Numbered from the stretch's first letter, positions 36,981 to 48,583 are shown. The stretch: DNA of 64,000 nt from an uncultured Lachnospiraceae bacterium (GCA_946611535.1 CAMODT010000138.1:2866-66865); one strand, 5' to 3'. Numbers and translations are program-made. The notes: generated from the letters alone by a model not told the origin.

Positions 36981-37009
36981 GGTTTCGCAGAATAAGGCAT
37001 TCTGCGAAA
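36981..37009. repeat. Left copy of 29-bp inverted repeat (candidate recombinase site)
   Basis: GG-TTTCGCAGAA-TAAGGCA-TTCTGCGAAA; exact reverse complement of 43962-43990. Confidence 0.9.
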
Positions 37010-37071: not shown

Positions 37072-40000
37072 ATGAAAAAGATGAAAAAAGTCCTGTCACT
37101 CGTCCTGGCGATGGTTATGATCCTTTCGCTGGGCGCAACTCCGACCTGGGCAGCCGGAAGAGGACAGAGCGGCTGGTCCAGCGTCACCTACGGTGCCGCG
37201 GAGGACAAGACCGAAGATACGGCGGAAGTTCTGGCAGAGGAGCTTGCGGCTCCGGCCGATGAATCAGAGGTTCCGGCCGAAGAACCGGCGGCTCCGGCTG
37301 AGGAGACCGAGGTTCCGGCGGAAGAGCCGGCAGCTCCGGCCGAAGAGCCTGAAGTTCCGGCGGAAGAGCCCGCAGCTCCGGCTTCTGAGCCTGAAGCTCT
37401 GGAAGAAAATATTGTTTCCTATCCCGCCGTCACCCTTGCGGGAATGACGGAGGGTTCTGTTGCCGTGCGCGTGGAGGCACCGGAGGGCGCTCTCCCGGAG
37501 GGCACGACCATGACGCTCAAGGACGTCACGGTTGAGGAGGTTCAGGCGAAGGTTTCCGGCGAGATAGAAGGCAGGATTGTCACGGCGGTCGACATCACCT
37601 TCCGTGACCTCAACGACAACGAAATCCAGCCAAATGGAAATGTTGCGGTTTCGATCAAGGCGCCTGAGCTCGCGGAGGCGGAGGCTCAGGAACTCGGCGT
37701 TCTCCATATCAATGAAGAGAAGAAGGAAGCTGAGGAACTGACGGCTGAGGAAAATGCAGTCGAAGTGAAAGCGGCCTCGGCAGATGAGGTGGCTTTTGTA
37801 AATGATGCCTTCTCCATCTATGTCGTTGTGGAGACCGGAAATGAAGCCAGACTGTTTGTCAATTTTGTCGGATTAAAAAATAGCCCAATCGCATCCATCC
37901 CCGTCAAGCAGGGTGATAAGATGGATCAGGTGCTCTATGATCCCGGCGCAGGCACTCTTGAAGACGGCGTGTACTTCCGCGGCTGGACGACGGATGCTGA
38001 TTATACGACTGCGACACCTGCTCTGACGATCTCTGATGTGCGTACCGCTGTGGCAGCCATGCTGCCTCCTGCGTCGGATGGCACAGAGGTGACTTACTAT
38101 GCGATGCTGTTCAAGGATTACCGGATCACTTACCTGGATGAGAAAAATATCTCTCTCGGCCAGGAGGAGGTGACGTTCCGCGCGGATGCTGCATCTGCAG
38201 AGCAGCAGTACAAAGTGAACATGGCCTACACCGTTCAGAATGAGAACTATCACTTTGAGGGGTGGAAGGTCAAAGATGGTTCCAGCAATATTGTTGGATA
38301 CGAAACGGATAAGGCCTATCAGAATAACGAAACCATCACGATTACCGGTGATGTCACCTTCAGTGTCAACGCACCGGAGGGCCATTGGTTTATCTTTGAT
38401 GCAAATGGTAAAGGAGCTACTTACAATGCTCCTCAGTTCGTGTATTCTGCCGATAAGCCTAGAAGACCGAATGATGAGAACATGATCCGCAACGGATATA
38501 GATTCGGGGGTTGGTATTCTTCAAAGGCGATCGCAGATGATTTGGAATCTACTGAAGAAGAATATGATTTTGATCAGCTTCTTACAGATAAGACTACTGT
38601 CTATGCTCGTTGGATTCCTAATACAACAGCAGGATATACTATCATTATCTGGAAGCAGAATCTGGCTGGTGACGGGTATGACTTCGTTGAGTCTATTCCC
38701 AAAACCGGTAATGTGGGCAGCAATATTGATACTGTAAGATATGAAGATGGAGATCTCCAAGTACAGCGTAATGGTAACACATGGTCAACTGTAGAATATA
38801 CCGGTTTCCACTATAAATCGTTTGATCAGAATGTTTCAATCAAGACAGAAGGAAACTCTGTTCTAAATATTTACTTTGATAGGAACGAACACACTCTGAG
38901 ATTTAAGACCTCAAGCGGTGGTATTAATACAAAAACAAAGTCGTACAATGGTACGACCTATACATTGGCACAATCCGGAAGTAATTACTACATTCAGATT
39001 AATGGAAAGTGGTATCGTGTCACTGGAAGTAGTGTAGGCAACTATTTCTGGGGTGATTATGCGATTAACAGTAATTACAATCATGTAACTAATATTACTC
39101 CTGGTGGATCTATATACTTTAAAAATAGTGGTTTACTTAGCCAATGGCATGGTCCGTATAGCATAGCCAGTACAGCAACTGAGTTGACTGACTCAAGTGA
39201 AGTTAAAACCATCACTGCGCTTTATGGCCAGCCCATTGGTGAAAACTTCCCTATCGTCGGCACAAACGGAGTAACATATAACAATGGTGAGCGCTGGAGT
39301 CCTCAGAACAGCACTACTTATAATCAGGTTCTCGTTTACATTGACACTATGCCTGATGAAGACGTAACGTTCATCGTCAACACTTCAACATATGGCACAA
39401 AAACTATTACATATTATACTGAAGTGCTGTCGGGCGAGACACCGGATATCACATACAATGGCAAGGGATTTAAAGAATATAAGTCTGTAGACGCGAAGTA
39501 TGGCTTCTTTACTGAAGCGGAAGACTATATAAACTTTGTAGGCTTCTCTAAAGGCGGCACCACATATCCGCCCAGAGCATATAACTCAAATGGAACACAA
39601 CTAAACTCTGTATGGAACAACGAAAACGCAAGATATGTACAGTGCTACTACACCCGTATCGTCTATCCCATCAACTTCATGGATGGCAAGTATGTAAACG
39701 GCGACAACAATCCTTTGGAAGAATCCGGCATGAGCCAGATCCATATCGAGGAAGATATCGCATATGGCGCTGACATTTCAGCACAGAACAACTATAAGCC
39801 AGATGCTACACATACACCTTCCGGATATGTTTTTGAAGGTTGGTACCTTGACGACGCGTGCACACAGCCGTACACATTCTCAACCATGCCGGAGGGTGGT
39901 ATCACTGTCTACGCGAAGTGGAGACAGAAGCAGTACCGTGTATTCCTTCATGTAAACTACCCTGAAGGAGCGACCGGTTATATCGACTGGGGTACAGCTA

Positions 40001-41844
40001 ACCAGGCATTGACCTTCCGTATCAGCGAAGGCGGTCATGTCAGTGAGCCTACCGGTAGAGGTCTGGCTGGGTATGCATTTGACGGTTGGTATCTTGATCC
40101 TGAATATACACGTGTATTCAACGGAGAAGCTTATACGATCAATGAATCCAACGTTACGACTCCTTACGACAAGTCTGTCGACATGACAGATACTTATGAC
40201 GTAAACGGTCAGCTGGTCGATCCGAAACGCAACTCGGATCTTACCGGCTGGGACGATGACGGAGATGAAAACACTCCCGGCAAAGAACGTTTCTGGATAA
40301 CCAAGAAGCTCGACATCTATGCTAAGTGGCATGCGACTCTGGATGGAGCGTCTGGCATCGTAGTGGAATACGACGCAAATGGGGGTAGCGGAGCTCCTAC
40401 GGACATCCATACCTACGTGGATACCGCTAAGGCCCCTGCAGGCGCTGCATCAACCGCCCAGGCAGGATCCGGTAAGGTATTCGGCTATTGGGCCGTCATG
40501 AAGTGGACTGAATCCGGGTGGGCAGAAACCGGTGAGACAGTTCTTCCCGGCGATACCTTCACCGTACTGAAAGCGAATGCGAAGGTAGAAGAACTTGCTA
40601 CGGCTGCGCCAAATGGAGATACCAAGAAGTACACAGTACAGCTGAAAGCTGTCTATATCGATTCCGAGAAACCGACGCCGACACATATCTGCTGGTTCGA
40701 AAATGACGGAACGGAAGCTTTCCATACAGATAAAGTAACTGGAGATCTTGGCATCAATGAAGCGGTTAATATTCAACCTGCACCGACAGACGCCCGGATT
40801 GAGGAAGGTTACAAATTCAAAGGCTGGGCAAGAGTAAAGATCAGCAGTTCTCAAGATTATGACGAAGCAGCAGGGGAGGCAGCTGCGTGGGAGGCTAATT
40901 CGAATAACTGGAAACAGGATAATCTTGAACTTTTCCTGTATTACAATGAGGCCAATGGTAAGTTTTATAAAGAGGCAGCATTCACTAATGAGGCTAAAGA
41001 GGTTGCAGCAGACGAAGAACTTCCGTATCATGCGATGTTCGCTGTCTGGGAAGCCAAATATTACGTTTTCAATTCCTCGACAGGTGTACTTCATGCCTAT
41101 ACATTGGAGAAGAATGTTGACCTGACAGATTATGTGTCAGACGGCCATCTTTACGGCGGCTACTACAGCGCGTACGGAGCATACAACGCTACCGATGGAG
41201 AGCTGGCTGCCGCTATGGCTGAGGCTGAAAAGAACGGAACTTATGAAACTCATGCAGAAGTATATACCGGAGACGCTATAAAAGCCAAGAACGGTAATCG
41301 CTTCTGGAGTAAGGCCAACCAGTTAACAGCGAAGGGAACCAGCGTCAATCCTAAGCCGAATGATGTTTATTTCTTGAAAGAGGTTCCGAAGAAGTATCTC
41401 AATACAGATGCAAGATGGGTCTACGATGTGACAAACAATGACCACAATATCCTGTACATGTACTTGATTACCGTCATTGATGATCCTTACTATAGCCAGG
41501 TCGGATACAAAATCATCAGTAAGGACAAACCGACAAAGGTAATTACAGCAAAGTTTACAGCAGTTAACCAGCAGAATGGAGTACAGAGTGGGTCCCAGAC
41601 AATCTCAGCGGCGACATATAAAGATGATGGCATAAGTCGCGGTTATCTGGGTGTCGTTGACGCCAGCACTGAAGTGATCGGCGGTCTTGCAAACGGATCC
41701 GTCTCTGTCCAGCCTTACTGGATAACACCTGACGGCGTCACAGTCCGATTTGGCGGTTACAACATTAACACTAAGGACGGTAATGCAGTTAAGGACGGAA
41801 ACCTCGAGCATAGTAATGTCGGAACCGAAGTAACGTATGAATAA
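37072..41844 (+). CDS. Large secreted/surface protein with multiple InlB B-repeat (Listeria-Bacteroides)-like domains
   Basis: SD AAGGAGG, signal peptide MKKMKKVLSLVLAM, EEPAAPAEE repeats, about 7 recurrent F.GW(Y) motifs; no LPXTG seen at the C-terminus. Confidence 0.8.
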   Translation: MKKMKKVLSLVLAMVMILSLGATPTWAAGRGQSGWSSVTYGAAEDKTEDTAEVLAEELAAPADESEVPAEEPAAPAEETEVPAEEPAAPAEEPEVPAEEPAAPASEPEALEENIVSYPAVTLAGMTEGSVAVRVEAPEGALPEGTTMTLKDVTVEEVQAKVSGEIEGRIVTAVDITFRDLNDNEIQPNGNVAVSIKAPELAEAEAQELGVLHINEEKKEAEELTAEENAVEVKAASADEVAFVNDAFSIYVVVETGNEARLFVNFVGLKNSPIASIPVKQGDKMDQVLYDPGAGTLEDGVYFRGWTTDADYTTATPALTISDVRTAVAAMLPPASDGTEVTYYAMLFKDYRITYLDEKNISLGQEEVTFRADAASAEQQYKVNMAYTVQNENYHFEGWKVKDGSSNIVGYETDKAYQNNETITITGDVTFSVNAPEGHWFIFDANGKGATYNAPQFVYSADKPRRPNDENMIRNGYRFGGWYSSKAIADDLESTEEEYDFDQLLTDKTTVYARWIPNTTAGYTIIIWKQNLAGDGYDFVESIPKTGNVGSNIDTVRYEDGDLQVQRNGNTWSTVEYTGFHYKSFDQNVSIKTEGNSVLNIYFDRNEHTLRFKTSSGGINTKTKSYNGTTYTLAQSGSNYYIQINGKWYRVTGSSVGNYFWGDYAINSNYNHVTNITPGGSIYFKNSGLLSQWHGPYSIASTATELTDSSEVKTITALYGQPIGENFPIVGTNGVTYNNGERWSPQNSTTYNQVLVYIDTMPDEDVTFIVNTSTYGTKTITYYTEVLSGETPDITYNGKGFKEYKSVDAKYGFFTEAEDYINFVGFSKGGTTYPPRAYNSNGTQLNSVWNNENARYVQCYYTRIVYPINFMDGKYVNGDNNPLEESGMSQIHIEEDIAYGADISAQNNYKPDATHTPSGYVFEGWYLDDACTQPYTFSTMPEGGITVYAKWRQKQYRVFLHVNYPEGATGYIDWGTANQALTFRISEGGHVSEPTGRGLAGYAFDGWYLDPEYTRVFNGEAYTINESNVTTPYDKSVDMTDTYDVNGQLVDPKRNSDLTGWDDDGDENTPGKERFWITKKLDIYAKWHATLDGASGIVVEYDANGGSGAPTDIHTYVDTAKAPAGAASTAQAGSGKVFGYWAVMKWTESGWAETGETVLPGDTFTVLKANAKVEELATAAPNGDTKKYTVQLKAVYIDSEKPTPTHICWFENDGTEAFHTDKVTGDLGINEAVNIQPAPTDARIEEGYKFKGWARVKISSSQDYDEAAGEAAAWEANSNNWKQDNLELFLYYNEANGKFYKEAAFTNEAKEVAADEELPYHAMFAVWEAKYYVFNSSTGVLHAYTLEKNVDLTDYVSDGHLYGGYYSAYGAYNATDGELAAAMAEAEKNGTYETHAEVYTGDAIKAKNGNRFWSKANQLTAKGTSVNPKPNDVYFLKEVPKKYLNTDARWVYDVTNNDHNILYMYLITVIDDPYYSQVGYKIISKDKPTKVITAKFTAVNQQNGVQSGSQTISAATYKDDGISRGYLGVVDASTEVIGGLANGSVSVQPYWITPDGVTVRFGGYNINTKDGNAVKDGNLEHSNVGTEVTYE
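37237..37395 (+). repeat. About four 42-bp tandem coding repeats (EEPAAPAEEPEVPA)
   Basis: Visible in the DNA (GCGGCTCCGGC...GAGGTTCCGGC units) and in the translation. Confidence 0.8.
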
Positions 41845-42220
41845 GAAGTATACACTATTATTATCTGCCCTGGCAGTAATTATTCTGCTTACGATCTGTT
41901 TATTACTGATTCGGCCTCGCACAGAGGCCAGATCAGGACAGACGCAGGATTCATCTTACAGTACTGCGTCTGTCTCCAATCAAAGTACAGAGGCAGATAA
42001 GTCAGAAATAAGTGCAGCGGCTGAAGCAGGAAGCAGCACCGCAAGTGATGCCCCTGCGGCAGATGCATACAGGGAGGATTCCGGCAATACGTTTTCCGGA
42101 GAAGAGATTTCAGAATCAGGGGGAGATAGTTCGACCGCTGAGTCTGAAATCCCTTCTGTTACTGTTACAGAAGAATATACCATCGAGCTTCAGGAGGGTG
42201 AAGCGATCGGTGGTTTCTGA
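41837..42220 (+). CDS. Small membrane-anchored/secreted Ser/Glu-rich protein
   Basis: N-terminal hydrophobic segment, low-complexity linker, short C-terminal motif ...TIELQEGEAIGGF; start overlaps the upstream stop. Confidence 0.65.
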   Translation: MNKKYTLLLSALAVIILLTICLLLIRPRTEARSGQTQDSSYSTASVSNQSTEADKSEISAAAEAGSSTASDAPAADAYREDSGNTFSGEEISESGGDSSTAESEIPSVTVTEEYTIELQEGEAIGGF

Positions 42221-42243
42221 TAAGAAAGGAGGTCTGATGGATT

Positions 42244-42525
42244 ATGGCTCAATTTACATTTGGGACCTGGTATCAGGGTTTTACAGAAGAAGACTATAAT
42301 AGCTTTAGAAGCAACACAGCTATAATGGAAATATTAAACCAATTTGGAGGTGTTCTTGAATATAGTTGTGACGGCGGTATCTGCTATATTGTCCCCGGAG
42401 CCGGAGATGGCGAAGCCTTGCGGAATGCACTTTTTGAAAGTGATGAAGGCCTTGAAGCTTCAGAGCTGTTAAATACATTCGTCTATTGCGGATCTGCGTA
42501 CGGCTTCTCGACATTTCTGGGTTAA
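42244..42525 (+). CDS. Small hypothetical protein A (paralogue of 43688-43936)
   Basis: SD AAGGAGG upstream; shares G.(W/Y)Y.G(F/L)TEE.(Y/F) and DGG..Y motifs with the paralogue. Confidence 0.6.
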   Translation: MAQFTFGTWYQGFTEEDYNSFRSNTAIMEILNQFGGVLEYSCDGGICYIVPGAGDGEALRNALFESDEGLEASELLNTFVYCGSAYGFSTFLG

Positions 42526-42627
42526 TTAAGCAGTATTGGATGATCAGTTTTATGTAAAAGGCAGAGAGGAGTCCCCGGCAATTTATTTTCCGGAGGCTCC
42601 TTTCGTGACAGGAGGCTATTCGGGCAA

Positions 42628-43359
42628 TTGACACAAGCGCAATCTTCAGAATACGTTACAATCAAGATCGCCGGGCACCCCATGCGCCTCTCCCTCCGTT
42701 ATCCTGCCGCAGCCCGATTTTTCAGGCAGTATGCGGCAGCTGAACCACCTGTCTTTCAGGTTCCGGAGGTCAATGAGGATGACTGGCAGGCGCTAATGCG
42801 CAGCGGATTTGTGCGCTCCGCCCAGATGGAATCGAGTTTCCTCTGCGCAAAGTGCTCCGACGTCCTTCTGCCGGAGCAATGCTGCCTCATTCACGCCGCC
42901 GCCTTCCGGGACAGAGAACATGCCTATCTACTCGCGGCCGACCCCGGCGTCGGCAAATCCACCCAAGTGCGGACGTTACAGGAGCTGTACCCGGGTGAAT
43001 TTTCCGTTATTTGCGGAGACAGGCCGGCTCTTAAGCTCACGGATGACGGCAGGGTCATGGTTCACATGACCCCTTGGAACGGCAAGGAAAACTGGGGAGG
43101 AGCACCGGCCGCTCCGCTGTCTGACCTTATTTTTCTTAAGCGGGGAGAGAGCTCGTCGCTGCGGCAGCTGACGGTCCGCGAGGCGGTCCTGCCCTTGTGG
43201 AGCTCCCTGATCCATACGGCCGAGATGGAGGAGGGGATCAGGCAGGCGGCGGAATTTGCCACAGGGCTGCTGAGCCGTATCAGGACCTGGGAATTTGTCA
43301 ACGGAGGTATCCCGGACTCCTCAAAAATGCTCTATGAGCAATTGCTTCGGAGGGAATGA
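42628..43359 (+). CDS. HPr kinase-like P-loop protein
   Basis: IHAAA...PGVGKST, GDRP, TPWNGKE motifs of HprK-related kinases. Confidence 0.75.
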   Translation: MTQAQSSEYVTIKIAGHPMRLSLRYPAAARFFRQYAAAEPPVFQVPEVNEDDWQALMRSGFVRSAQMESSFLCAKCSDVLLPEQCCLIHAAAFRDREHAYLLAADPGVGKSTQVRTLQELYPGEFSVICGDRPALKLTDDGRVMVHMTPWNGKENWGGAPAAPLSDLIFLKRGESSSLRQLTVREAVLPLWSSLIHTAEMEEGIRQAAEFATGLLSRIRTWEFVNGGIPDSSKMLYEQLLRRE

Positions 43360-43360
43360 T

Positions 43361-43645
43361 ATGACATACAAGTGCAGACCCGGCATCGTCCGTGTGAAGA
43401 TCTGCGGAGAGTATCTGCTGACCCCGACCAGGGCTGCCTCGGAAGCCTGCCCGAAGGTGCTGAGGCTGTCCATCATGAAGGCGGCGCTCTGGGAGGAGCT
43501 GGAGAAGGGACATGACGGGAGTGTCGTCGTGCGGGCATTTCATGCGCTGAGCAGAAAGCCGGAGGAAGAGATCCGCAAAAAGGTCGATCAGGCCCTCACA
43601 GAACTGTATGAAGGCGGTTTTATCATCAGGGCTGACGAAAACTGA
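43361..43645 (+). CDS. PqqD family protein (RRE-like)
   Basis: 94 aa: beta-rich start (RVKICGEYLL), ALWEEL, KVDQALTELYEGGFI, matching the PqqD pattern. Confidence 0.7.
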   Translation: MTYKCRPGIVRVKICGEYLLTPTRAASEACPKVLRLSIMKAALWEELEKGHDGSVVVRAFHALSRKPEEEIRKKVDQALTELYEGGFIIRADEN

Positions 43646-43687
43646 CCATGCGGTCCGGGATATGTCGCTGATGAAAGGAGCGGGAAG

Positions 43688-43936
43688 ATGACGCTGAAAA
43701 CAGGAGAATACTACGGACTGACGGAAGAGCAGTTCAGGGCACTCGGAAAATACGCAGGATTCAGGAACTTTGCGGACCGTTTCAGCCTTCTTCGCACGGA
43801 CGGCGGGAACTATTATGTCTACAGCGGAGAGCCTTACGAATTTTTTGAGTTCGCGGAGGACAACGAGATCGGCGAACGTTATAATCTGACGTATTTTACT
43901 TACATTTACCCCAGGAATTTTGTCACGGGGTTCTGA
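43688..43936 (+). CDS. Small hypothetical protein A' (paralogue of 42244-42525)
   Basis: SD AAGGAG; MTLKTGEYYGLTEEQF...DGGNYYVY. Confidence 0.6.
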   Translation: MTLKTGEYYGLTEEQFRALGKYAGFRNFADRFSLLRTDGGNYYVYSGEPYEFFEFAEDNEIGERYNLTYFTYIYPRNFVTGF

Positions 43937-43961: not shown

Positions 43962-43990
43962 TTTCGCAGAATGCCTTATTCTGCGAAACC
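43962..43990. repeat. Right copy of 29-bp inverted repeat
   Basis: TTTCGCAGAA-TGCCTTA-TTCTGCGAAA-CC. Confidence 0.9.
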
Positions 43991-44202
43991 CACTATTCGC
44001 TCTAAACGTTTGGATTTATAATATTCCTCATTCGAAATAATGTCAATAGATTTTCCGGTATTTCAGGATTGTATTTTTTTATACGAATCCTTCCAGACAT
44101 GAATACCGACCGTACGCAGTCAGCGCCCGAGAAAGGGCGAAGACAACCAGCAGACACCAGGAGATACCGCGGAAACAAAATTGCACCAGGAGGAATATGC
44201 CC

Positions 44203-45216
44203 ATGAAATCCACCGAACTGTTAACATTTGGCGATGCCGCATCCGAATGGCTCGCCGGTCTCCGGCCGGAACTCAAGGAATCCAGCCTCGCACGCTACCG
44301 GAACATACTGAAGATCCATCTGCTGCCGGAATTCCGGGACACCCCGGTCTCCGGGATCACCCGCGAGCAGGTAAACGACTGCCGGATCCGTCTCCTGAGC
44401 GGAAATGAAGACAATGCCGCCCTCGCCCCCGCAACCGTCTCCGCCATCCTCTCCGTCCTGAAACGAGTGCTGCGCTACGCCGGCAACGAAAAAGGCTGCC
44501 GCATCGCCGACCTCTCCTCTGTCACCGTGCGCCGAAATGTCCCCCGTCTGCGGGTACTGACCGGCGAGGAGCAGTTCCGCCTCACCCGTCATCTGTGCGC
44601 CAACCCGAGCCTGCCAAACCTTGGGATCCTCCTCACGCTCTACACCGGGCTCCGCATCGGGGAGCTCTGTGCCCTCAGATGGGAAGATATCGCCCCGGAC
44701 TCTCCGTCGATCCAGGTCCGGATGACCATGCAGCGCGTGCAGACCCCTGAACAGTCACCGCGCACGCGTGTCATCGTGACCGCCCCGAAGAGCCCGTGCT
44801 CCGTCCGGGTCATCCCGGTGCCGGATTTCCTGAAACCGATGCTCCTTGCCGCGCGGAGGGAGCCCGACTGCTATTTTCTGACGGGGACCTCCGATTCTTT
44901 TCTGGAGCCGCGCACGATGCAGAACCATTTCAGACGGATCCTGGCGGACTGTTCGATTGAGGGGGCTGTATTTCACACGCTGCGCCACACCTTCGCGACC
45001 CGCTGCATCGAGCAGGGGTTCGACCTTAAGACGCTGAGCGAGATCCTCGGGCACTCGGACATCGGCATCACGATGAACCGCTACGTGCACCCCTCCATGA
45101 CCTTCAAGCGGGAAAACATGAACAAGCTGGCCTCCCTCTTTGAGGGAAATCTGCTCCCGGAATCATTTGAGCCATCGCCGACGCGCAGGAAGACGGTCAA
45201 ATCGCCTGAGTCCTAA
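44203..45216 (+). CDS. Tyrosine recombinase / site-specific integrase
   Basis: SAM-like N-domain; all catalytic residues present: YTGLRIGE (R), PKS (K), HTLRH (H..R), LGH, RYVH (Y); SD GGAGG. Confidence 0.93.
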   Translation: MKSTELLTFGDAASEWLAGLRPELKESSLARYRNILKIHLLPEFRDTPVSGITREQVNDCRIRLLSGNEDNAALAPATVSAILSVLKRVLRYAGNEKGCRIADLSSVTVRRNVPRLRVLTGEEQFRLTRHLCANPSLPNLGILLTLYTGLRIGELCALRWEDIAPDSPSIQVRMTMQRVQTPEQSPRTRVIVTAPKSPCSVRVIPVPDFLKPMLLAARREPDCYFLTGTSDSFLEPRTMQNHFRRILADCSIEGAVFHTLRHTFATRCIEQGFDLKTLSEILGHSDIGITMNRYVHPSMTFKRENMNKLASLFEGNLLPESFEPSPTRRKTVKSPES

Positions 45217-46663: not shown

Positions 46664-48583
46664 TCAGCCCTTTCCCTGCGGTTCGCACCTTCTCTTCCGC
46701 TCTCTCCTCGCAACCCCGTCCATGACCATCGTCACCTCCGGCTGCTCCGGCTCGACCGCGAGCGCCTTCGAGAACTGGGTCGTGTAGAGCTCGTGGTAGA
46801 CGCCGTCCGGGGTCTTCACCAGGTCCGCATGCTGGCCCCGCTCGACGATCGCCCCGTCCTTCACGACGAGGATCTCGTCCGCGGCGAGGATCGTCGAGAG
46901 CCTGTGCGCGATCAGGATGCTCGTCCGGTCCTTGATGAGCGGTTCGATCGCCTCCTGGATCTTCTGCTCGGAGATGGAGTCGAGCGCCGACGTCGCCTCG
47001 TCGAAAATGAGCAGCGCGGGATCCTTGAGCAGCACCCGCGCGATGGAGATGCGCTGCTTCTCGCCGCCCGAGAGCTTGAGCCCGCGGTTGCCGACCATCG
47101 TGTCCAGGCCCGCCTCCTGGTTCTCGACGAAATCGTAGATGTTGGCCTTTTTGAGCGCCTCGACCATCTCCTCCTCGGTGGCGTCCTCCTTCGCGTAGAG
47201 GAGATTTTCCCGGATCGTCCCGTTGAAGAGATAGGTCTCCTGGCTCACGATGCCGACCTGCTGCCTGAGCCAGGTGAGATCCAGCTTCCGGACGTCGATC
47301 CCGTCGAAGGAGACGCTCCCGCCCGTCACGTCGTAGAGACGCGGGATCAGGTTGATCATCGTGCTCTTGCCCGAGCCTGAAGGCCCGACGATTGCGATGC
47401 ATTTTCCGGCGTCGAGCGTGAAATTGACGTCCTTCAGGATCTGCCGCTCGCCGTCGTAGGAGAAATCGACATGCGAGAACTCGACCTCGCCCGAGGCGGA
47501 GGCCGGTGCGACCGCGTCCTTCGCGTTCACGATCTCGGAGGGCATGTCAAAATATTCAAAGATTCTTGTAAACAGCGCCATCGAGCGGATCCACTCGACC
47601 TGAATGTTGAGGAGGGAGTTGACGGGCATGTACATTCTCCCGAGGAGCGCGACGAGGACCGTGATGTCGCCGACTGTGAGGTCCGCGTCGTAGCGCATCA
47701 TCAGGATGCCGCCGACAAGATAGAGAAGCATCGGGCCGATGCTCGCGACCGTGGAAATGACGACCCGGAACCAGCGGCCCGCCATCTGCTCCTTGATGCT
47801 GAGTTCAATCATGCGGCGGTTTGCATTTTCATATTTGGCGTACTCGAGCTCCTCGCGCCCGAACAGCTTGACGAGCAGCTGGCCGCTGACCGACATGGTC
47901 TCATTCAGGATCCCGTTGATGTCGTCCGAGGCCGCCTGGGCTTCGCGGGTCAGGGTCCAGCGGGTCTTGCCCGCGCGCCGCGTCGGGATCGTGAAAAGCG
48001 GGATGATGACGACGCCGATCGTCGCCAGGATCCAGTTCCGCCGGTACATCGCGACCACCGCGATGATGAGCGTGGTCGAGTTGGAGAGGATGCTGGTCAT
48101 CGTGTTCGTGATGACCGAGCGGACCCCGTCGATGTCGCTCGTCATGCGGGTGATGATGTCGCCCTGGTTGCTCGAGGTGAAGAAGCGCTGGGACATTTCC
48201 TGCAGGTGCCGGTACATCGTGTTCCGCATGTCGTAGGTGATGTGCTGCGCGATCCAGGTGTTCATGTAGCTCTCAAGCACCCCGATGAGGTTCGCGCCGA
48301 GCGTGACCGCCAGCGAGAACACGATGAGGCGGACCAGCATCGGCAGGTTCCTCCCGATGAGGCCCTCGTCGACGATCCGCCCGGTCAGGATGGACGGATA
48401 GAGGTTTAAGAGCGAGGAAATGAAGATCGCCGCGAGCACCACGACCATCTGCTTCCAGTAAGGCGCGAGGTAGGAAAATACCCGAAGAAGCAGCTCCTTC
48501 GTCACCTTCGGCTGATTCTTCTTCTCCTCTTCCGTCAGGTACTGGCCCCCCATCGGGCCTCCCGGTCCTCTGTGACCCGCCAT
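46664..48583 (-). CDS. ABC exporter (fused permease/ATPase)
   Basis: Six TM segments; [34 protein letters not shown]. Confidence 0.92.

Follow-up and report, generated by a model that had tools for sequence, protein, structure and literature searches.

A kinase and RRE gene pair with small-protein partners in a Clostridial surface-protein operon

The window, the whole 64,000-nucleotide stretch of DNA that was analyzed, comes from an uncultured Lachnospiraceae bacterium and contains a gene for an HprK-like kinase, followed by a gene for a stand-alone PqqD-type RiPP recognition element (RRE), between two small open reading frames. A preliminary description of this DNA proposed that these genes form a new modification module, which raises the question of what such a pair modifies and whether the arrangement reflects the design of the system. 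The genes that it noted were all found on the + strand at the coordinates it gave; the six from the giant gene to smallB are listed here with the elements around them.

36981..37009, no strand: left 29-bp site, GGTTTCGCAGAATAAGGCATTCTGCGAAA, with palindromic arms and an asymmetric centre, 62 bp 5' of the giant gene's ATG
37072..41844, + strand: giant secreted surface protein gene, 1590 aa from an RBS-preceded ATG
41837..42220, + strand: gene for a signal-anchored 127-aa protein, the tether
42244..42525, + strand: smallA, 93 aa, in the canonical place directly 5' of the kinase gene
42628..43359, + strand: HprK/PEPCK-fold P-loop kinase gene, 243 aa, TTG start
43361..43645, + strand: stand-alone PqqD-type RRE gene, 94 aa
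43688..43936, + strand: smallB, 82 aa, a second, divergent member of the small-protein family
43962..43990, no strand: right 29-bp site, the left site in inverted orientation
44197..45216, + strand: tyrosine recombinase, 339 aa, directly after the right site; Pfam Phage_integrase (E = 1.3e-22) plus a SAM-like N-domain
46664..48583, - strand: MsbA-type ABC exporter, 639 aa; Pfam ABC_membrane and ABC_tran

The cassette ORFs are close-packed on one strand and all six are undamaged. The start of the tether gene overlaps the stop codon of the giant gene, and ribosome-binding sites were found 5' of smallA, the kinase gene, the RRE gene and smallB.

The 243-aa protein is an HprK/PEPCK-fold kinase of the ScmC/PF27840 family. 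In a single-sequence search it was weakly HprK-like (TIGR04352, E = 1.6e-3; ScmC, E = 0.014), and the family and fold evidence was stronger than these scores. Among 23 family members, 15 matched ScmC and 13 matched HprK_rel_A; Pfam PF27840 'ScmC' is annotated on database homologues, and the family profile matched BsfK, an experimentally characterised lasso kinase (E = 1.8e-8). The structural model (pLDDT 94) gave Foldseek matches to PEPCK and L. casei HprK/P (E about 1e-6 to 1e-5). The protein carries a Walker A motif (ADPGVGKST) and the motifs CGDRP and PWNGKE, and all invariant kinase residues are kept. Fold and family profiles thus agreed with the earlier assignment as an HprK-like kinase.

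Two known kinase families were considered as identities for this protein. Like HprK/P it has a PEPCK-like P-loop kinase fold, with Foldseek matches to 1kkl, 1kkm and 1jb1 at E about 1e-5, but it is without the N-terminal HprK domain, its accessory N-terminal beta-hairpin and helix differ, and its gene adjoins that of the RRE rather than carbon-catabolite genes. HprK/P proper was ruled out because the similarity is at the level of fold only and Pfam Hpr_kinase gave zero matches to the window kinase at E <= 1. The best family-level matches were SynChlorMet ScmC (TIGR04249, PF27840) and HprK-related kinase A/PqqD (TIGR04352), which belong to systems where the kinase is paired with a PqqD-like protein, as in the cassette. 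The window kinase reached at most about 18 bits against curated cut-offs of 125-200, no radical SAM/SPASM genes (ScmE/F) were among the conserved cassette neighbours, and the context, unlike that of ScmC systems, is one of Clostridial surface-protein and capsule genes. A SynChlorMet cassette was ruled out by the ScmC scores, far below cut-off, and by the missing radical SAM neighbours.

Profile comparison identified the 94-aa protein as a PqqD-type RRE, with LppB and the lasso B1 proteins as its nearest solved relatives. The window sequence itself scored 17.4 bits, below the 23.4-bit cut-off of Pfam PqqD (PF05402), so that the earlier RRE assignment draws its support from the orthologues, 17 of 35 of which matched PqqD (best E = 1e-15), and from the family profile. 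This profile matched four solved RREs, including LppB (9x8z_B, E = 3.7e-5), the top PDB match, TbiB1 and TfuB1; it also matched BsfB1 (E = 1.2e-9).

The two small ORFs had been described as paralogous. Pairwise comparison alone was unconvincing on this point (BLASTP E = 0.013), and searches of Pfam and NCBIfam returned zero matches for either ORF. An independent profile built solely from 17 positional counterparts in other genomes matched both, smallB more strongly (E = 8.5e-10) than smallA (E = 3e-5), where each E value is for a single comparison. Intermediate sequences linked the two as well: smallA matched the small proteins of loci L077 and L076 (E = 5e-12 and 5e-10), which lie 5' of the kinase gene, and smallB matched those of L004 and L076 (E = 1e-4 and 2e-4). 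By the independent profile and these intermediates, smallA and smallB are members of one family of proteins of about 80-120 aa, and the claim of paralogy stands on that footing. The family comprised 109 cluster representatives in 1.84 billion proteins, nearly all of 72-123 aa.

The cassette is common to about 60 species-level genomes of Clostridia from rumen and gut, where it forms a little-known operon. Its shared order is the giant Flg_new protein, an acidic tether ending in GG[F/N], a small protein of roughly 85 aa, the kinase, the RRE and an NTP_transf_5 nucleotidyltransferase, often followed 3' by an ABC exporter and capsule genes. The RRE gene lies directly 3' of the kinase gene in about 62 loci, with the nucleotidyltransferase gene next in about 55; 41 loci have a homologue of the giant gene directly 5' of the cassette, and in 23 the cassette has an ABC exporter of the same type as a neighbour. 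In a neighbour census made by crude ORF calling in high-GC DNA, a same-strand ORF of 55-150 aa ended no more than 260 bp 5' of the kinase gene in 53 of 55 cases. With the small-protein profile as the sole starting point, all four retrieved contigs carried a giant protein, tether, small protein, ScmC kinase and RRE. The profile search and neighbourhood check that had been proposed for the small ORFs therefore revealed strict co-occurrence with the kinase and RRE, which makes the small proteins the best candidates for the substrate. There are exceptions, since in at least two relatives, L015 and L018, the genes for the kinase and nucleotidyltransferase are present but no convincing small ORF or giant gene accompanies them.

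The kinase and RRE are relatives of the kinase-B1 pair of lasso/paeninodin-type clusters, as the preliminary description had held; the matches to BsfK, BsfB1, TbiB1 and TfuB1 support this kinship. Tailoring sets of phosphorylated lasso peptides include paeninodin PadeK/B1, pseudomycoidin PsmK/PsmN and Bradymonas BsfK/BsfB1/BsfN (PMC8498205, PMC10368454). In these, the activity of BsfK is strongly raised by B1 and hexoses are added onto the phosphate by PsmN (PMC8498205, PMC10368454), and HprK-like kinases phosphorylate Ser of both lasso and LPP precursors (PMC8498205, PMC10368454, PMC13381572). By analogy, the cassette would be expected to phosphorylate Ser with the help of the RRE and then, through the nucleotidyltransferase, to glycosylate the phosphate; its candidate substrates have 80-120 aa, against roughly 40 aa for lasso peptides. 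A macrolactam synthetase and a B2 protease, which had also been reported missing, were not among the conserved neighbours of 62 loci, and PF13471 stayed below cut-off throughout the genome. On the absence of both enzymes from these conserved neighbours, a paeninodin-type lasso cluster was rejected.

The other close likeness is to the linear polyphosphorylated peptide (LPP) clusters of Bacillota, LppA/K/B/S/D/N (Popov et al., Nat Commun 2026, PMC13381572), a RiPP family described in 2026 with a kinase, RRE, nucleotidyltransferase and ABC transporter and no cyclase (PMC13381572). In LPP clusters, which lie within capsule loci, the precursors are 35-200 aa long (PMC13381572). Like these clusters, cassette loci bring together an HprK-like kinase and a separate PqqD-type RRE, in nearly all relatives with an NTP_transf-type transferase and often with an MsbA-like exporter; neither system has a lasso cyclase, and both are embedded in capsule-polysaccharide loci. 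One to three precursor genes (up to 200 aa) adjoin the LPP kinase gene, as the small ORFs do here. The window kinase qualifies as the LppK counterpart by fold and profile evidence, and among solved structures LppB matches the cassette RRE family best. The LppN counterpart is unlinked in this genome, on contig C180, and adjoins the RRE in about 55 relatives. For LppD there is the exporter at 46664-48583, on the opposite strand to the cassette and past the recombinase; it may be the cassette's exporter, a link that is uncertain. The systems differ in that LPP clusters have a SpI/SipW-like leader peptidase (LppS) and none is linked to the cassette. TIGR02228, the model for that peptidase, gave zero matches above cut-off in this genome; such genes occurred in 5 of 14 cassette-bearing genomes tested, always on other contigs and in none of the 14 linked to the cassette, and tblastn with four SpI proteins gave zero matches in any cassette locus or the window. 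A giant Flg_new protein and a membrane tether with a GG tail are constant companions of the cassette but not of LPP clusters, and the hosts of the cassette are Clostridia rather than Bacilli. The idea of a new module thus needs qualifying: the module is not isolated to the window, and the concept of a cyclase-less kinase/RRE system has been known since 2026, but this is a divergent variant of it.

The LPP leader YxxPxVLxHQxIxFETxxS is missing from the window small proteins, neither of which has a [YW]xxP motif, and their candidate Ser lies in the C-terminal tail. In distant loci, about 20 small ORFs begin with M[KR][KR]x[YFW]xxPx[LVIMF], followed by G[ST]GQG, and so keep only the YxxPx[LV] part; a start of this type is the RRE-binding leader motif of lasso and LPP precursors. 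The window small proteins are predicted to be folded alpha/beta domains, unlike classical RiPP precursors; the AlphaFold model of smallB (pLDDT 79) has an alpha/beta domain and a floppy tail. The tail motif of the family is Y-x-x-S-x-[QH]-G, and its Ser is kept in most group-1 members. SmallA is small, acidic and aromatic, and its tail (FVYCGS84AYGFSTFLG) holds this Ser within S-A-[YH]-G, a form that smallA shares with its orthologues in L076 and L077, both of them intact loci. SmallB, with a tail ending YIYPRNFVTGF, is without it, and the S-x-Q consensus is missing from both window copies.

We therefore favour, at roughly even odds with its mechanism included, the reading that the segment is the kinase-RRE core, with small-protein partners, of a Clostridial surface-protein operon divergently related to the LPP/phosphorylated-lasso tailoring machinery. 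By analogy with those systems, the operon's kinase probably phosphorylates its own small proteins. The RRE would bind an aromatic strand at the small protein's N-terminus ('YYxLTxxEY') and hand the protein to the kinase, which would phosphorylate, possibly several times, the conserved Ser of the flexible C-terminal tail, Ser84 in smallA. The nucleotidyltransferase would then extend the phosphate with a sugar or nucleotide, and the modified small protein would work at the cell surface with the giant adhesin, the tether and the capsule. Substrate, modified residue and chemistry are here inferred from analogy and conservation. Counting against this reading are the leaderless small proteins of the window with their predicted folds, the Ser-less smallB, the position of the transferase outside the operon, the exceptions L015 and L018, and the lack of RNA contigs over the kinase gene, the RRE gene and smallB.

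The surface proteins of the operon offer another set of targets, and the preliminary description had named Ser/Thr-rich secreted proteins beside the small proteins, of which the latter have proved the best candidates. The giant protein has a signal peptide, Flg_new repeats (Pfam Flg_new, E = 7e-22) and a conserved C-terminal 'PYWITxDGV' domain; no wall-anchor motif was recognisable in it. In the tether, a low-complexity Ser/acidic linker joins an N-terminal transmembrane segment to the conserved C-terminal motif TEEYTIELQEGEAIGGF. Counterparts are known from at least 25 loci, and in 24 of 26 relatives of the tether an acidic, beta-strand-like stretch leads into a terminal G-[GS]-x(0-2), so that the ordered motif reported at this C-terminus is conserved as a GG-like tail. 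The kinase and RRE, with the nucleotidyltransferase, might thus target the exported tether's linker or GG[F/N] tail, or the giant adhesin, with the small proteins as adaptors or chaperones, a reading we regard as rather unlikely. The modification would precede export and could, at similarly low probability, provide for example a phospho-glycan handle to capsule or wall. The tether and giant genes are tied to the trio as tightly as the small ORFs, the tether gene lies between the RRE and nucleotidyltransferase genes in distant loci, and tether tails (GQGIGGF) resemble small-protein tails (STQGIGGF/N); the linkers are Ser/Thr-rich and the cassette surroundings include capsule, LCP and LtaS-like genes. 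However, the tether and giant protein bear Sec or lipoprotein signals and the kinase, RRE and transferase none, and neither Ser nor Thr is conserved in the tether tail. The most constant partner is the small ORF directly 5' of the kinase gene (53/55), and it is the small ORF that bears the canonical RRE-binding leader in distant loci.

The arrangement in this genome bears on whether the operon still works. The left 29-bp site and 43962-43990 are perfect reverse complements of each other. Two occurrences of the pattern lie in the window, where 0 were expected, and the genome has four. Contigs of three bovine-gut metagenomes track the RRE gene and smallB and then diverge at 43978, within the right site, and the recombinase beside it was likened to XerC/XerD and integron integrases. 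The window has no nucleotidyltransferase, as had been claimed, but the claim fails for the genome, whose only PF14907 gene is intact on C180. There it is followed by EpsG-DegT-Metallophos-LCP genes, and the same genes follow the cassette in the closest relative, L076, where all cassette genes are contiguous and the nucleotidyltransferase gene comes directly after the RRE gene. SmallB occupies that slot here and is absent from L076. Since the nucleotidyltransferase lies elsewhere in this genome and adjoins the RRE in nearly all relatives, the flanking of the pair by two paralogues is a derived rearrangement and not the design of the system. On the preferred reading the operon would have been split, with the giant-to-RRE block and a Ser-less extra paralogue between the perfect inverted sites, beside the tyrosine recombinase, and the nucleotidyltransferase and capsule genes still at the ancestral locus, so that the transferase would need to act in trans.

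The same rearrangement, mediated by the recombinase, could instead have parted the module from its nucleotidyltransferase and capsule genes and left a displaced, partly disabled remnant; the pathway would then go no further than phosphorylation, or be silent, and smallB would be a duplicate in decay. We hold this reading to be improbable. It would accommodate the transferase on another contig, contiguous in the closest relative, the cassette's place between inverted sites beside a recombinase, the Ser-less smallB and the two copies without S-x-Q. Rumen metatranscriptome contigs, which are of low depth and may include DNA, spanned the tether gene and the tether-smallA junction, and one at 100% identity spanned smallA 42267-42450; none was seen over the kinase gene, the RRE gene or smallB, as would suit a remnant. 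Against it stand the six intact ORFs with their ribosome-binding sites, the full set of invariant kinase residues, the smallA tail shared with intact loci, the presence of the tether/smallA region in metatranscriptomes, and the intact C180 gene, which could act in trans. That the small ORFs are unrelated or chance non-coding sequence beside an orphan pair with substrates elsewhere is very improbable and largely refuted, for despite the weak BLASTP score and empty Pfam/NCBIfam searches they have independent profile scores, orthologues at E = 5e-12, 109 full-length family representatives, strict synteny with the kinase, ribosome-binding sites and RNA contigs.

A bolder reading, and a long shot, is that in the cassette LPP chemistry has branched off to the protein level, where it serves surface architecture rather than antibiosis, and that a Ser-(poly)phosphate protein primes or anchors a capsule polymer or docks the giant adhesin, which has no sortase motif, to the envelope. 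If so, the Ser (poly)phosphate would be received by a small, folded protein, perhaps also by the tether with its GG tail, and extended to a phospho-glycan by the nucleotidyltransferase. Gram-positive gut bacteria would thereby have a new means of mounting and exchanging giant adhesins, and in this lineage the recombinase would in addition invert or exchange the cassette as a whole.

The genes analyzed here form a tight row on the + strand that spans 37.0-45.2 kb of the window.

Genes of the + strand row, in order
37072-41844, + strand: giant, a secreted surface protein of 1590 aa with Flg_new repeats (Pfam E=7e-22)
41837-42220, + strand: tether, 127 aa, whose ATG overlaps the giant stop codon; N-terminal membrane segment, Ser/acidic linker and the end ...TEEYTIELQEGEAIGGF
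42244-42525, + strand: smallA, 93 aa
42628-43359, + strand: HprK-like kinase, 243 aa
43361-43645, + strand: RRE, 94 aa, beginning one base past the kinase stop
43688-43936, + strand: smallB, 82 aa
44197-45216, + strand: tyrosine recombinase (Phage_integrase E=1e-22)

Shine-Dalgarno sequences precede smallA, the kinase, the RRE and smallB. The GC content of the row is 0.44-0.53, compared to ~0.6 around it. Between 38000 and 42600, a segment that holds most of the giant and the small genes, it is 0.44-0.48 against ~0.6 in the flanks, as would fit a cassette whose body was exchanged horizontally.

As a single sequence, the 243-aa kinase gave weak matches to HprK_rel_A (TIGR04352, E=1.6e-3) and ScmC (E=0.014). 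Database homologues number 77, many of them already annotated with the new Pfam family PF27840 'ScmC', and within the aligned family ScmC was matched by 15 of 23 members and HprK_rel_A by 13 of 23. Among the residues invariant in the family are the Lys/Thr of Walker A, the 'CGDRP' Asp and a 'WNGK' motif. A PDB sequence search with the kinase profile returned generic P-loop matches only, so placement required a comparison of folds. An AlphaFold model built on the family alignment (pLDDT 94.3) was closest to PEP carboxykinases (E ~1e-6) and L. casei HprK/P (E ~1e-5); as modelled, the kinase is a PEPCK/HprK P-loop kinase fold. Published Bradymonas genes were translated for comparison with the kinase and RRE profiles, and the kinase profile matched BsfK, an experimentally validated precursor kinase, in a single comparison (E=1.8e-8). 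Within the host family the kinase is unevenly spread, with matches at E<=1e-10 in 27 of 121 genera.

The RRE scores below the Pfam PqqD threshold, but 17 of 35 orthologues have a PqqD match, the best with an E of 1e-15. The family profile matched four solved RREs: 9x8z_B (E=3.7e-5), which is LppB (PMC13381572), TbiB1, TfuB1 and 9x90_B (PbaB1). It also matched BsfB1, the Bradymonas lasso RRE (E=1.2e-9). The labels 'HprK-like kinase' and 'PqqD/RRE' used in the preliminary description are thus correct, given the family and fold evidence and the matches to BsfK and BsfB1. At two loci the kinase and RRE are apparently fused in one ORF (L054 5766-6821, 351 aa; L064 9869-11092, 407 aa), and these fusions are consistent with both acting as a single unit. 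A second, distant kinase paralogue is encoded in the genome that contains the window, on contig C173 at about 36.8-37.9 kb (L003 6848-7852; 28% identity, profile E=2e-66). An 88-aa PqqD-like gene lies directly before this paralogue rather than after it, and the pair adjoins a MATE-like transporter and hypA/hypB, with the giant, tether and transferase all absent nearby.

The two small ORFs flanking the kinase-RRE pair had been proposed to be paralogous on inspection. Direct pairwise BLASTP gave marginal support (E=0.013), while a common family was recovered by profile, by orthologues and by exhaustive search. The position immediately 5' of the kinase is taken in other genomes by a gene for a similar acidic, aromatic protein of 80-120 aa, and a profile built only from 17 such foreign proteins matched smallB with E=8.5e-10 and smallA with E=3e-5. 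L077 and L076, the two closest loci, have clear orthologues of smallA (E=5e-12 and E=5e-10, respectively), and smallB aligned with the small proteins of L004 and L076 at E about 1e-4. A word-indexed search with the profile gave 13 matches only, and the size of the family rests on an exhaustive profile search of 1.84 billion proteins, which found 109 cluster representatives, almost all of them 72-123 aa long and aligned from end to end. By these profile criteria, smallA and smallB are members of one family. Its features are an N-terminal 'G..[YW][YW]x[LF][ST]xx[DE][YFW]' strand, a central 'YY' and a C-terminal '[FY]xYxxSx[QH]G' tail. In smallA the serine of this tail is Ser84; smallB has lost it (..YIYPRNFVTGF). 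In the predicted model (pLDDT 79), smallB is a small alpha/beta domain whose tail has low confidence, and Foldseek returned nothing significant for it, the best hits being generic ferredoxin-like designs (E=0.07). The possibility that smallB is an N-terminal remnant of a nucleotidyltransferase was ruled out because it aligns over its full length with the small-protein family and an intact transferase lies elsewhere. Rumen metatranscriptome contigs of 95-100% identity covered the tether gene, the tether-smallA junction and smallA, at low depth and with possible DNA carry-over; none of these contigs covered the kinase, RRE or smallB. A reading of the small ORFs as chance ORFs is essentially excluded.

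Scanning a collection of genomes with the kinase alignment yielded a census of 62 loci, the ORFs of which were screened by HMM and BLAST. All 62 come from rumen or gut MAGs, mostly of Lachnospiraceae, Oscillospiraceae/Ruminococcaceae or Erysipelotrichaceae. The RRE lies directly 3' of the kinase in essentially all of them, and an NTP_transf_5 nucleotidyltransferase (PF14907) follows it in about 55. A same-strand ORF of 55-150 aa ends <=260 bp upstream of 53 of 55 kinase genes. The cassette is preceded on its 5' side by a homologous giant surface protein in 41 loci, has an MsbA-type ABC exporter nearby in 23, and is followed by CpsB, CpsD-like and Ig-like capsule genes in 7-13; LCP, LtaS-like sulfatase and metallophosphoesterase genes also occur near cassette loci. 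Counterparts of the tether were found in at least 25 loci, all with an acidic low-complexity linker and about half with a lipobox; the C-terminus ...[DE]x[IV]x[IVL]x[DE]..x.GG[FNL] is present in 24 of 26. In distant loci, the tether gene comes after the RRE and before the transferase. The reverse search, starting from the small-protein profile, recovered giant, tether, small protein, ScmC kinase and RRE on all four contigs retrieved, and the small ORFs therefore co-occur with the kinase/PqqD genes. The giants (37072-41844 and those of the 41 loci) have a signal peptide and a common C-terminal 'GYLG...PYWITxDGVxV' domain but lack LPXTG, SLH and any other obvious motif for wall anchoring. The translationally coupled tether may hold them on the cell.

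In distant loci, about 20 upstream small ORFs (18 loci) begin with M[KR][KR]x[YFW]xxPx[LVIMF], followed by a Gly/Ser-rich stretch with G[ST]GQG and often by an EF-hand-like DxDxDGxxD motif. The M-K-K-x-Y-x-x-P-x-L leader, G[ST]GQG and a single EF-hand/dockerin-like motif occur together in L032, L033, L045, L049, L052, L064 and others (e.g. ..NPDADYNGDGTVDEADY..), a combination atypical of RiPP precursors. [Y/W]xxPx[L/V] is the exact motif bound by lasso and LPP (linear polyphosphorylated peptide) RREs, and those systems are phosphorylated on Ser3 of their cores, GTSGNE and AQSNWK (PMC10368454, PMC13381572). The case for the small ORFs as putative clients of the RRE and kinase rests most strongly on this leader motif. 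We infer that the small proteins of the window group, which are leaderless and form a folded domain, may be clients as well.

Of the described systems, the nearest is the LPP family of Bacilli, first reported in 2026 (PMC13381572). LPP systems comprise a kinase (LppK), an RRE (LppB), a SpI-like leader peptidase (LppS), an exporter (LppD) and an NTP transferase (LppN); the clusters lie in capsule loci, the precursors have 35-200 aa and the primary modification is Ser3 polyphosphorylation (PMC13381572). The cassette was not classed as an LPP cluster because the defining leader peptidase is unlinked here and neither smallA nor smallB has the LPP leader consensus. In addition, it has a giant surface protein, a GG-tailed tether and, in the window group, folded small proteins with a candidate serine in the C-terminal tail. 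The cassette is a distinct variant that very probably works in an LPP-like manner. The preliminary description had reported no lasso cyclase, B2 protease or radical SAM enzyme, and this held: no B2 protease reached the cut-off in the genome, and neither cyclase-like nor radical-SAM genes were found among the conserved neighbours of the cassette loci. Searches of the literature library found no description of the Clostridial cassette and nothing relevant on ScmC/SynChlorMet or PF14907, and the one paper retrieved on YxxPxL together with a kinase was the Bsf paper.

A nucleotidyltransferase had also been reported absent, which holds for the window and fails for the genome: its sole PF14907 gene is terminal on contig C180 and precedes EpsG-like, DegT, metallophosphoesterase and LCP genes. 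In the closest relative, L076 (kinase 67% identical), smallB is absent and all genes are contiguous, in the order CpsD-like, Bac_transf, transposase, giant, tether (..EFVIELQEDQAVGGF), smallA orthologue, kinase, RRE, nucleotidyltransferase, EpsG, DegT, Metallophos and LCP. Contig C174 terminates in capsule genes and a second tether gene, after which come a palindromic site and the opening 24 codons of a giant gene, and the terminus of C180 carries the identical site and giant 5' end, divergent from the transferase. The second tether-family gene (C174:35571-35930) encodes a lipoprotein ending ..TIVLEENEAIGGF and lies after the capsule genes (two CpsC/D-like and Bac_transf), just before the palindromic site. 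No second giant gene that would fit these two extra 5' ends was found in the assembly, which lacks the bodies of both.

Perfect 29-bp inverted sites (36981-37009 and 43962-43990), each with 11-bp arms around an asymmetric centre, flank the 7-kb cassette of the window, with the tyrosine recombinase adjacent. A variant, TTCGCAGATTAGGGTATTCTGCGAA, is located at C174:35976-36000 and C180:46819-46843, and in both places the promoter, RBS and giant-gene 5' end that come next are the same. The site thus occurs four times in the genome, every copy at a giant-gene border, and none of the other loci carries it. The variant giant 5' end has about 2x unique depth in the isolate's own sequencing run, and contigs of three bovine-gut metagenomes track the window through RRE-smallB and part from it at 43978, within the right site. 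The palindromes are unlikely to be plain terminators, since both lack a T-run after them on the operon strand, the genome has just four copies, all at giant borders, and the metagenome contigs diverge inside one of them. The sites, the recombinase and the divergence at 43978 suggest that the recombinase drives the inversion or exchange of giant-adhesin cassettes; no inverted joint was seen in the assembled contigs. From these arrangements, we read the split as a probable lineage-specific, recombinase-associated rearrangement of an ancestral contiguous operon.

Beyond the homology, fold, synteny, co-occurrence and rearrangement documented here, we propose that the kinase, helped by the RRE, would phosphorylate the tail serine of the small protein, that the transferase, necessarily in trans in this genome, would extend the phosphate, and that the product would act at the cell surface jointly with adhesin, tether and capsule. 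As a joint mechanism, we consider this an evenly balanced proposition. That the exported tether or the giant protein is the real target appears unlikely. That the module is a displaced, partly disabled remnant is slightly less likely still.

The cassette shows that the kinase/RRE/nucleotidyltransferase logic of LPPs is reused across rumen and gut Clostridia. The Clostridial version involves 80-120-aa proteins, lacks the leader peptidase and is linked to giants, a dedicated tether and capsule genes. This linkage is a testable hint that phospho-tailored ribosomal products may serve cell-surface assembly rather than act as antibiotics, and smallA, with Ser84, offers biochemistry a defined, small candidate substrate. 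The cassette also draws attention to a giant-adhesin family, with no obvious wall anchor, in important fibre-associated bacteria of the gut and rumen.
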